Source: Nitrosopumilus sp. | GTDB lineage: Archaea > Thermoproteota > Nitrososphaeria > Nitrososphaerales > Nitrosopumilaceae | Length of the DNA: 64,000 nucleotides | Direction of reading: 5' to 3' | Assembly: GCA_965205215.1 (NCBI GenBank) | Contig: OZ242041.1 | Location: forward strand, 2,016,001 to 2,080,000 | Shown here: piece after piece, positions 49,158-51,264 of the stretch | Position numbering within the stretch: position 1 is the first letter of the stretch | How the letters are laid out: each line of letters begins with the position of its first letter | Position numbers and translations under genes: made by a program | The notes under the pieces: model-generated | The model's input: only the letters and a program-made list of their open reading frames with translations | Told to the model about the DNA's origin: nothing | Database searches by the model: none

Positions 49158-49370
49158 CTAGTCCCACTCGTCGAGGGTACCGGACGACTGCCCCTTGCTG
49201 GCGGCCCCGGCATAGTCGCTCAGTATGTCCGAGTATGTGGGATCGTTGTGCGCGACGTACTCTACATAGTCCCCATAACTCATGTCAAACTCGCACGTGC
49301 CGCACTTTACCTTGGCAAAGTCCGGTGAGAGTACCGCATCCTCCCTGCACTTGGGGCACTTTATCTTCAC
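49158..49370 (-). CDS. Zinc-ribbon protein
   Basis: CPKC...C.TC. Ends TLDEWD. Confidence 0.7.
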   Translation of the reverse strand: MKIKCPKCREDAVLSPDFAKVKCGTCEFDMSYGDYVEYVAHNDPTYSDILSDYAGAASKGQSSGTLDEWD

Positions 49371-49418
49371 GCGCGGCCGTAGGTGTCGGCCACTATTATG
49401 ACTTGTGAGAACCGGTTC

Positions 49419-50929
49419 CGCTTCCAATCCGTGATATGTCCTGACTGATGCTCCGGCCAATGGACAGGATGCAGCCGGCAGCCACATGGCGGCGCGCCCG
49501 TCACATTGGAAACAAGGCATAATAACATGATCACCTTGCGTGTTACGTGTTGCATGCATACCGCAAGTACCGGGTCGCCATATCGCTGGCGGCCGACCAG
49601 GTGCGCCTCATCGACTCGTACCGCGCTGCCCAGCGCCACGCGTACAACTGGTCCGTCGGGAGGATCATGTCGGGCGGTGCCGTAAGCGAGTACGGGCTGT
49701 ACAAGGAGCTGACGGCCAGGCGCCTGGAACAGGAGTGGATGCGCGCCGTTCCCGCGTGGATACAGCGTGCGGGCATCCAAGACGCATGCACCGCGCACAA
49801 ACTGGCAGCGAGGTCCGGCGGCGGCCTCAGGCACCGCACGAGGAAACGGCACTCCGCAATCTCCGTGAGGTGCGCGCTCGCGCCGCGCACAGTCGACAGG
49901 TACGGCATCATGCTGCCGTCGTTTGGAACTGTCCGCGCGGCCGTACCCAACGAGGTCATGGAGCACGAACCAAGATCGTACGAGTTCACCAGGACGCGGA
50001 GCGGCCGGTACGTGCTGTACGTGTCGTGCCGCGTCGGGATGCCGCCGCAGCGGAGCGTGCCCGCGGACGCGACGGTCAAGGGGGTTGACCGCGGCGTCGC
50101 GGAGCCCACGGTGGTCGTGACCATGGACCGCGGGGGAAGTGCAGTCGCAAAGGACTCCTACGACACGGCCGCGCCGTTCAGGGACGGCCGCGCGGAATAC
50201 CAAGAAATGCAGTCAAGGATGTCCAAGATGAACAGGCACTCCAACAGGTTCAGGAGGCTGCACGCGCGGCTCCGCAGGCGCCTGCAGAAGACCGGAAGCC
50301 GCCGCCAGTACGCGGAGTGCATCGCGGCCAAGCACGTGTGCGACGACCATGCACCCGGCGTGATCGTGCTCGAGGACCTCAAGGTATCAAGCATGACCCG
50401 CAGGGGGCGCGGCTCCCACAAGAGGGGGCTCAACCGCGAGATGCGCTTCGTGCGGCACCGCGCCGTCGAGCAGCGCATACGAAACCGCGCCGAGCTCGCG
50501 GGCATACAGATCATCACGGTCGACCCCAGGTACACGTCGCAGGAGTGCGCGAGGTGCGGGCACGTCGACAAGTCCTCGAGGGTGACGAGGGACATGTTCA
50601 GGTGCACCAAGTGCAGTTACGTTCAACAGGCCGACGTCAACGCGGCCATGGTAATCGGGGGATACGGCCTGCCGCCCACAGACCCCGGTGACACGACGAG
50701 AAAATGGCAGGCCACGGGGGCAGGAACGGCCCTCGTAAGACGCGAACTGGACGCGCGCCTCAACTGCTTCTCAGAGGCGGTCGGGGGCCCCGCGAGGGGG
50801 CACGAGAGCCAAGTGCCGGCGCGTTCCCTTTCCCGCAGCGGAATGGAGAAAGAACGTCAGAGTGCAGGCGTGGTGTTTGGCCGGGCTGCCGATTACGGCA
50901 TGCCCAACTAATATCACGGACTGGAAGCA
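49419..50929 (+). mobile_element. Non-autonomous TnpB-only element bounded by terminal inverted repeats
   Basis: IR GCTTCCAATCCGTGATAT (49420-49437) vs ATATCACGGACTGGAAGC (50911-50928), 17/18 match. GTTC(C) duplicated at 49415 and 50930. Confidence 0.72.
49547..50911 (+). CDS. tnpB: RNA-guided endonuclease TnpB
   Basis: RuvC-I GVDRG, RuvC-II VLEDL, TSQECARCGH/CTKC zinc finger, RuvC-III ADVNAA. All three catalytic residues are intact. Confidence 0.93.
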   Translation: MLHAYRKYRVAISLAADQVRLIDSYRAAQRHAYNWSVGRIMSGGAVSEYGLYKELTARRLEQEWMRAVPAWIQRAGIQDACTAHKLAARSGGGLRHRTRKRHSAISVRCALAPRTVDRYGIMLPSFGTVRAAVPNEVMEHEPRSYEFTRTRSGRYVLYVSCRVGMPPQRSVPADATVKGVDRGVAEPTVVVTMDRGGSAVAKDSYDTAAPFRDGRAEYQEMQSRMSKMNRHSNRFRRLHARLRRRLQKTGSRRQYAECIAAKHVCDDHAPGVIVLEDLKVSSMTRRGRGSHKRGLNREMRFVRHRAVEQRIRNRAELAGIQIITVDPRYTSQECARCGHVDKSSRVTRDMFRCTKCSYVQQADVNAAMVIGGYGLPPTDPGDTTRKWQATGAGTALVRRELDARLNCFSEAVGGPARGHESQVPARSLSRSGMEKERQSAGVVFGRAADYGMPN

Positions 50930-50973
50930 GTTCCTCAACAAGAGATAAAAGAGACGTCCGGAGACGGTGCGCC

Positions 50974-51264
50974 ATGGGGCGGCAGTGCACCAAGTGCAAG
51001 CTACAGATACAGGACTCCGAGGTTCTGGATATGGGGGCCGAGAAGTATCCCACGTGCAACAAGTGCTGGGCCGAGTGGAAAGAGTACCGCGTCATGGTCA
51101 TGAACGAGATGCGGCTTGACATGTCCATGCCGGATCACCGCAAGATGCTCCGCAAGAACGAAAAGATATTCGTCGGCGTCATGTCTCCTGACGGCGATGT
51201 CATAGATTTCACAAACGAGGACAACCGGCGCCCAGACGATCCCCCTCCCGGTTCTCAGGCCTAG
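50974..51264 (+). CDS. YggX-like Fe(II)-trafficking protein
   Basis: CW.EWK.....MNE.RLDMS....RKML. Confidence 0.8.
   Translation: MGRQCTKCKLQIQDSEVLDMGAEKYPTCNKCWAEWKEYRVMVMNEMRLDMSMPDHRKMLRKNEKIFVGVMSPDGDVIDFTNEDNRRPDDPPPGSQA

Follow-up and report, generated by a model that had tools for sequence, protein, structure and literature searches.

How does a gene for TnpB move when it lies between terminal inverted repeats (TIRs) and no transposase gene is found among the open reading frames (ORFs) of the element that carries it, and what would an RNA-guided nuclease do for such an element? These questions are raised by a locus in a 64,000-nucleotide stretch of a Nitrosopumilus sp. genome (contig OZ242041.1, positions 2,016,001 to 2,080,000), hereafter the window, in whose own numbering positions are given unless a contig is named. 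We favor as the probable explanation a non-autonomous archaeal transposon of IS6-like type that carries only tnpB and its guide-RNA scaffold, and that would be mobilized in trans, take its guide from the flanking DNA and use the nuclease for homing. The observations behind it are the ends of the element, the family to which its TIRs belong, 8-bp target duplications, empty alleles, a matching DDE transposon, a conserved RNA structure and an asymmetric G beside the left duplication.

Judged by its sequence, the gene is a member of the TnpB family. The protein scores 124 bits against the NCBIfam model guided_TnpB (NF040570; cut-off 100) and matches the Pfam TNB domain (PF07282, E=3.9e-19), while its matches in the PDB are Cas12f and TnpB chains. 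D181 and E276 are invariant in the family alignment, as are C334, C337, C353 and C356 of a CxxC...CxxC finger, and the motif QQADVN occurs in all three full-length family members, its ADVNA aligning with ADFNA of a Cas12f chain. A preliminary description of the locus had proposed an intact TnpB with D-E-D residues and a zinc finger, and these matches and residues bear it out. It had also placed the gene, with no transposase, between 18-bp inverted repeats identical at 17 of 18 positions, with the stop codon abutting the right repeat. Re-measurement gave the same 17/18 match between 49420-49437 and 50911-50928, a level reached by none of 300 shuffles of 49400-50960 (shuffle maximum 15); the last base of the stop codon TAA (50909-50911) is also the first base of the right repeat.

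The exact ends of the element follow from comparison with a second copy. The genome, a single contig of 2.1 Mb (95% complete, 60% G+C), holds four tnpB copies, namely A (in the window), B (98% identical to A), and C and D (about 55% amino acid identity). Identity between A and B spans 49414 (GGTTCC...) to 50934 (...AGTTCC) and runs two bases further, to 50936, by a chance match; metagenome contigs have loose ends at 49414 and 50936. Copy B is flanked on both sides by the 8-bp duplication TCGCCAAG, and the relative G062 has an empty copy-B site with TCGCCAAG present once, where the flanks are 84-85% identical and give two matches that overlap by 8 bp. The empty site reads ...attgTCGCCAAGcaagg... 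and copy B reads ...attgTCGCCAAG[GGTTCC...AGTTCC]TCGCCAAGcaagg..., which fixes the ends exactly at GGTTCC and AGTTCC, sets the duplication at 8 bp and puts GTTCC (49415-49419 and 50930-50934 in the window copy) inside the element. The preliminary description had taken GTTC(C) for a target-site duplication of 4-6 bp and had set the junction there. This assignment has to be given up, as GTTC(C) is present at both ends of copy B, the family duplication is 8 bp and the true ends are 49414 and 50934. The TIRs are 24 nt long and imperfect (GGTTCCGCTTCCAATCCGTGATAT versus GGAACTGCTTCCAGTCCGTGATAT), with GTTCC contained in their outer 6 nt.

Other family members also carry 8-bp duplications, which are perfect for copy C (TAAAAAGA, read by eye), L095 (CTAAATAG), L089 (CAGAAAAA), L092 (ACAAGGTT) and L096, an internal-deletion derivative of 567 bp (TGCAATGA). 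For L091, an 8-bp duplication (TGTCAAGC) fits, by eye, if the outer left TIR is taken; paired left-TIR-like sequences 35-60 nt apart occur at the left ends of L039/L095 (~277-400) and L091 (~2380-2440). Copy D, whose ends are degenerate, has CTGACGG on both sides with a 2-nt offset and was excluded from every count. Copies B, C, L095, L089, L092 and L096 are each bounded at their repeats by a different duplication, the pattern for which the preliminary description had proposed to look, with the corrections that GTTCC lies inside the ends and that the window copy has none. The perfect duplications of copy B and of L096 indicate that both moved fairly recently. At E<=1e-60 this TnpB family occurs in 4 of 401 genomes of the taxonomic family, and at E<=1e-40 in 2 of 101 genomes of the genus; a metagenome scan for the element returned only three loci.

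The window site itself has an empty allele. Contigs from the DNA runs X5 and X6, which belong to two studies, link 49409 straight to 50935, skipping 1,525 nt; to the shorter side of the joint they extend for 63 and 50 letters, and this allele reads ...GACTTGTGAG joined directly to TCAACAAGAG.... Empty alleles, which the preliminary description had suggested looking for in relatives, are therefore in hand for the window site in two runs and for the copy-B site in G062. In distant relatives the empty site reads ...TTACATTCAA[CA]AAAAGATAAAAG at seven of seven loci read. The site is occupied in G449 by a copy 95-96% identical to that of the window (L088) and in G062 (contig C89, L043/L097) by a different family member, 69% identical inside, with flanks 93-94% identical; since the insertion is common to G449 and the site is occupied in G062 too, we regard the window insertion as old. 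The G062 member is bordered by TGAGTAAC and TCAATAAG, which match at 5/8 positions, and its cargo may have been swapped by recombination between family members, or a second insertion may have occurred at the same spot. G062 also has TAAC at the position of AACC in the window (49410-49413). In the metagenome contig L099, one of the three loci from the metagenome scan, the left flank is that of the window site and the right flank (CGTCTATT) is a different one, as copy recombination or an assembly chimera could produce, and one run-X5 contig tracks the element from 49414 to 50930 before passing into unrelated sequence, so that it may represent a further copy with another right junction.

With respect to the enzyme that moves the element, Y1 TnpA (PF01797) gave no match in the own genome and was positive in 6 of 14 control genomes, and serine TnpA (PF00239) likewise gave none and was positive in 12 of the 14. 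The genome has a single IS6-like DDE transposase gene (C1:438199-439125; L007:1183-2109, minus strand), an intact ORF of 309 aa that matches NF033587 with E=1.4e-30 over positions 1-199 of 202 and PF13610 above its cut-off. This gene sits in a complete 3,851-bp transposon (G000:C1:437752-441602, partly in L007 and L044) with TIRs GGTTCTAGTGCAAATTCGGGAGCT, matching at 25/26 positions, and a perfect 8-bp duplication, CAATCAGC; a DDE transposase with matching TIRs, as sought by the preliminary description, is thus present in the same genome. The transposon also carries a tRNA-Arg gene and a 418-aa DNA-methyltransferase-like ORF.

The left TIR of the window element has GG at positions 1-2, G at position 7 and a CGTGATAT block in common with IS6-like transposons and with copies that consist of TIRs only; its two TIRs start GGTTCCG... 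and GGAACTG.... Dozens of these short TIR-only copies, 66-170 bp long, lie on C1 of the own genome (one of 85 bp is flanked by CTGTATGC and CCGTATGC), and a sliding count found at least 34 further TIR tips with at least 19/26 matches. Transposase remnants in the own genome (e1/e2) join the TIR GGTACTGGTGCAAATTCGTGATATGG with the 3' end of a transposase gene, and the TIRs of the tnpB elements L101 and L095 are near-identical to this remnant TIR. The right tip AGTTCC, or a near variant, stands at the right end of eight class-1 tnpB elements (in the window at 50929-50934; also L082, L089, L095, L097 and others), unlike transposase-bearing and TIR-only relatives, which have AGAACC or AGTACC.

Homologues of the IS6-like transposase occur in 38 of 101 genomes of the genus, and one such element, in G081, has a perfect 29-bp TIR (GGTTCTGTGTAATCTTCGTGATATGGAAT) and the duplication CTATTGTG. 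Automatic end-finding over 30 IS6-like loci returned a clean TIR with duplication in L047 only; in L058, L063 and L067 the TIRs were perfect but no duplication accompanied them, and the remaining loci gave chance pairs. For the IS6-like elements of G104, right ends only were found, with no left TIR in the DNA examined. Taken together with the TIRs, the family duplications and the lack of an internal transposase, the matching transposon upholds the preliminary description's view of a non-autonomous TIR element; movement in trans by a DDE transposase, the other half of that view, is probable from sequence comparison, with the IS6-like enzyme of the 3.85-kb transposon as the candidate.

A parallel case is provided by G211, which belongs to another genus and in which tips of GGGAATTATATAC number 77, compared with 1 for a control pattern. 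Its many tnpB elements are about 1,466 bp long with perfect 24-bp TIRs, and among the 13 examined, ten have a perfect 8-bp duplication and one a 7/8 match. L109-L124 (G211:C1) form a large burst with AT-rich perfect duplications and A-T-N-G on the side upstream of tnpB. Two transposons, L122 and L147, have the G211 tip, perfect duplications and an IS1595-family transposase (NF033547, E=5.9e-52, above cut-off); L122 (G211:C1:1770047-1772736) carries as cargo a DNA methyltransferase fused to an HNH domain. The TIR type of these elements also occurs in copy D and in L092/L093 of G449, and no IS1595 transposase was found in the own genome.

In both settings a single base stands out beside the left duplication. 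When elements are oriented by tnpB and position -1 is the base directly 5' of the left duplication, G occupies -1 in all 11 G211 elements with good duplications (L112 is outside this count), against a background G frequency of 0.20, and eight of the same 11 have T at -3 and eight have A at -4. At the mirrored position on the right, G is found in 3 of the 11. Four further G211 left ends read G in three cases and A in one, and all seven class-1 elements of the window lineage have G (A, read via the empty allele, B, C, L095, L089, L096 and L101). Ends that have these TIRs but no tnpB do not rise above background: G was counted in 5 of 21 for G211, excluding L151 (a 324-bp TIR pair without duplication whose ends read A and G), and, for the own genome, in 10 of 34 tips by eye. 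A symmetric preference of the transposase would appear on both sides, so the one-sidedness argues against that source. The simplest reading of these sequences is that the G would be part of a target-adjacent motif (TAM) adjoining the guide target in the empty allele. Every occupied right junction is preceded by C (...TTCC), so that the element would be spared cutting by its own nuclease. The preliminary description had let the guide run off the right TIR with the TAM on its 5' side in the empty allele, an arrangement that fits the G at -1; its start of the guide shifts from GTTCC to 50935 (TCAACAAG...), and its TAM bases ..GAACCG are replaced by ...GTGAG, which is what precedes the target in the empty allele.

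The 3' part of the element encodes a conserved RNA structure, presumably the scaffold of the omega-RNA. RNAalifold applied to the last 235 nt of ten elements yielded 31 consensus pairs, 14 of them with compensatory changes, and included a hairpin whose conserved loop reads GAGA[AG]CCAA; an E-value scan of 49300-51100 matched no Rfam family. The 42-76 nt between the core and the tip differ among subfamilies and often contain a hairpin in which inner TIR bases take part. Parts of tnpB are covered by contigs of the RNA library X1, one of which spans 50621-50968, a weak hint in favor of the predicted guide flank; no contig covers 48900-49595.

We infer from these observations a mechanism in which an IS6-like DDE transposase would move the element in trans, creating the 8-bp duplications, and TnpB would be expressed together with an omega-RNA. 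If the transcript continued past the right TIR, the guide would consist of the duplicated 8 bp and the downstream flank. The nuclease would then recognize only the empty allele, by way of a short TAM ending in G directly 5' of the guide sequence, and cutting of that allele would favor its conversion to, or the retention of, the occupied one.

A number of observations weigh against this explanation. A duplication is missing at the window copy, where the flanks TGAGAACC and TCAACAAG agree at 3/8 positions, and in the occupied allele the 1,521-bp element is accompanied by four bases, AACC, whose presence is unexplained. The candidate transposase scores 106.5 bits against NF033587, under the curated cut-off of 125; the text of Harmer and Hall (2019, PMC6807381) has no archaeal IS6-like member tested experimentally; and none of 21 tnpB loci holds tnpB and a transposase within one TIR pair, a C-terminal transposase fragment lying nearby at just one of them. 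The G motif was spotted only after viewing the data, so that P-values for it are rough, and it is broken in other subfamilies, where -1 is A in L092 and L103, C in L093/L094 and T in L091, L107 and L126; L143 and L111, neither with a clean duplication, also have A. The X1 contigs reveal neither ends nor strand, and the library may hold DNA. Finally, the RNA core stops 76 nt short of the element end here and 42-73 nt short in others, and because the conserved structure halts before the end, the guide could be internal.

This last point leads to a different history, which we consider unlikely but the best placed of the alternatives, in which a solo tnpB of IS1341 type once inserted into an IS6-type TIR-only element and is now its cargo with a fixed guide. 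The omega-RNA would end soon after its core (...AACGTCAGAG, 50852-50861), and an internal guide, identical in every copy, would address a fixed target such as TIR-only copies without tnpB. Such an arrangement agrees with covarying structure that stops at 50858, followed by 76 nt without conserved pairing, and at least 34 TIR tips without tnpB in the own genome could be targets. A fixed internal guide nevertheless leaves the tnpB-specific, one-sided G 5' of the left duplication unexplained, and the variation of the core-to-TIR stretch among subfamilies also speaks against it, as does a 169-bp TIR-only copy (C1:752825-752993) that, by eye, has no clear similarity to the window element beyond the TIR. 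We give distinctly less credence to the idea that the TIR element is an immobile relic whose tnpB is decaying or has been adopted by the host for another role. The age of the window insertion (shared with G449, the site being occupied in G062), its damaged left junction, the presence of only four copies in the genome and a ratio of nonsynonymous to synonymous substitution (dN/dS) of ~1 between A and B would suit a relic, although this last value comes from only 10 differing ORF positions and is uninformative on current function, a point that also counts against our explanation; between A and L088 changes are too few for inference. Set against it are an intact ORF with its catalytic residues, the perfect duplications of copy B and L096, a site that is polymorphic in metagenomes, and long-term dN/dS of 0.22-0.33 against subfamilies 55-60% identical. 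Very improbable, in our judgment, is an ordinary solo tnpB of IS200/IS605 or IS607 type (IS1341 group), moved by TnpA without duplication, in which GTTCC would serve as TAM at the left end and as matching end motif at the right. GTTCC does stand at both ends of both near-identical copies, the pattern expected if a TAM and its end motif were conserved, and the NCBIfam models IS607_TnpB and IS200_TnpB give weak matches, but at 76 against a cut-off of 350 and 65 against 425 these lie far under their thresholds; moreover, the empty site puts GGTTCC and AGTTCC in the inserted DNA with 8 bp of target duplicated, the repeats are true inverted repeats of a kind common to DDE transposons, and neither a Y1 nor a serine recombinase was found in the own genome.

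Beyond this locus, we tentatively entertain, as possible though short of probable, that in these archaea DDE transposons whose 8-bp duplications vary have acquired TnpB on at least two occasions, IS6-like in one case and IS1595-like in the other, where it would act as an RNA-guided allele drive. Only an insertion that chanced to fall directly 3' of a short TAM (...G; A-T-N-G in G211) would gain a guide able to cut the empty allele, and it is insertions of this kind that would therefore persist. Were this true, survivorship would link a transposase with random targets to a TAM-dependent nuclease, and its trace would be a one-sided motif outside the duplication. In the usual account, TnpB restores a transposon after scarless excision by TnpA; to our knowledge, scarless excision sites are not known for IS6-like and IS1595-like DDE transposons, and that account is not obviously applicable to DDE elements. 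The loci form a clean natural data set, in that the ends are exact, empty alleles are available, independent insertions are numerous and a motif lies on one side beside the duplication, and with it the role of an RNA-guided nuclease for a DDE transposon becomes directly testable. They also add compact archaeal TnpB/omega-RNA pairs with a predicted short TAM, and they caution that labeling such genes as IS200/IS605 accessory proteins can misstate their mode of movement.

Coordinates of the window element and of related features (window numbering unless a contig is named)
Feature	Position	Strand	Remark
Whole non-autonomous TIR element with tnpB, 1,521 bp	49414..50934	+	From copy-B identity and the G062 empty site
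Left TIR, GGTTCCGCTTCCAATCCGTGATAT, 24 nt	49414..49437	+	Pairs with 50911-50934
Right TIR, ATATCACGGACTGGAAGCAGTTCC, 24 nt	50911..50934	+	Partner of left TIR
tnpB ORF, 454 aa	49547..50911	+	GTG start; stop included
Conserved structured RNA core, presumed omega-RNA scaffold	50715..50858	+	
Closing helix of RNA core	50739-50742 with 50855-50858		GACG with CGTC
AACC, four bases at left junction	49410..49413		Not in empty allele; joint 49409 to 50935
GTGAG, bases 5' of target in empty allele	49405..49409	+	Candidate TAM, G at -1
Predicted guide-encoding flank, TCAACAAGAGATAAAAGAGA	50935..50954	+	Starts at first base outside element
TIR-only copies, examples	G000:C1: 752825-752993; 1982408-1982492; 942795-942860; 945398-945463; 86570-86635		

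Small divergent genes flank the element, at 49161-49373 on the minus strand and 50974-51261 on the plus strand.

The architecture of the window element is of a known kind. In the text of Altae-Tran et al. (2023, PNAS, PMC10691335), six DDE-associated branches of prokaryotic TnpB, DDE-1 to DDE-6, are described; inverted terminal repeats are present in all of them, tnpB has its 3' end at most 250 bp from the transposon end, and the ends around some solo TnpBs resemble those of elements that encode a transposase, which suggested trans-mobilization. The comparison with Fanzor in the preliminary description therefore overstated the novelty, given that both DDE-associated and solo prokaryotic TnpBs within inverted terminal repeats had been reported there. 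As in DDE-1 to DDE-6, the window tnpB lies within inverted repeats, with its stop codon overlapping the right TIR; in contrast to them, there is no transposase inside, the 8-bp duplications vary and a conserved G lies outside. The partner family named in the text of that paper is IS630, and the corresponding text of a 2026 review lists ISL2, IS630 and IS1031 (PMC13565253), whereas the partners here are archaeal IS6-like and, in another genus, IS1595. These partner families may be new relative to those named in the two texts, overlap with DDE-1 to DDE-5 being possible; in the main text of open papers, we found no literature linking TnpB with IS6-like or IS1595 elements, or reporting TnpB in Nitrosopumilaceae.

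IS200/IS605 elements, as summarized in the review text (PMC13565253), have no TIRs and make no duplication, their Y1 TnpA inserting 3' of a fixed TAM. Like the IS1341-group solo tnpB genes of that family, the window element has a single tnpB of normal size, a scaffold overlapping its 3' end and no transposase in cis; unlike IS200/IS605, its family has TIRs and 8-bp duplications in a genome in which no TnpA was found. It differs from IS607 in the same presence of TIRs and duplications, with no serine recombinase TnpA found. The closer resemblance is to IS6/IS26, for which the text of Harmer and Hall (PMC6807381) gives TIRs that begin GG with G at position 7, 8-bp duplications and copies often without one; the archaeal 'IS6' group in that text has TIRs of at least 18 bp, and its authors doubt that the group belongs in IS6/IS26. 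The window family agrees with both in GG at 1-2, G at 7, long TIRs, 8-bp duplications and their frequent loss, and departs from classical IS6/IS26, which carry a transposase only, in that the TIRs enclose tnpB instead. It is also like Fanzor in eukaryotic DDE transposons in placing a TnpB-type nuclease between duplication-making TIRs. In the review text, the 5' duplication of eukaryotic or viral Fanzor is read as part of the TAM (PMC13565253), whereas in the elements described here the 8-bp duplication is variable, and the base that is conserved stands outside it.

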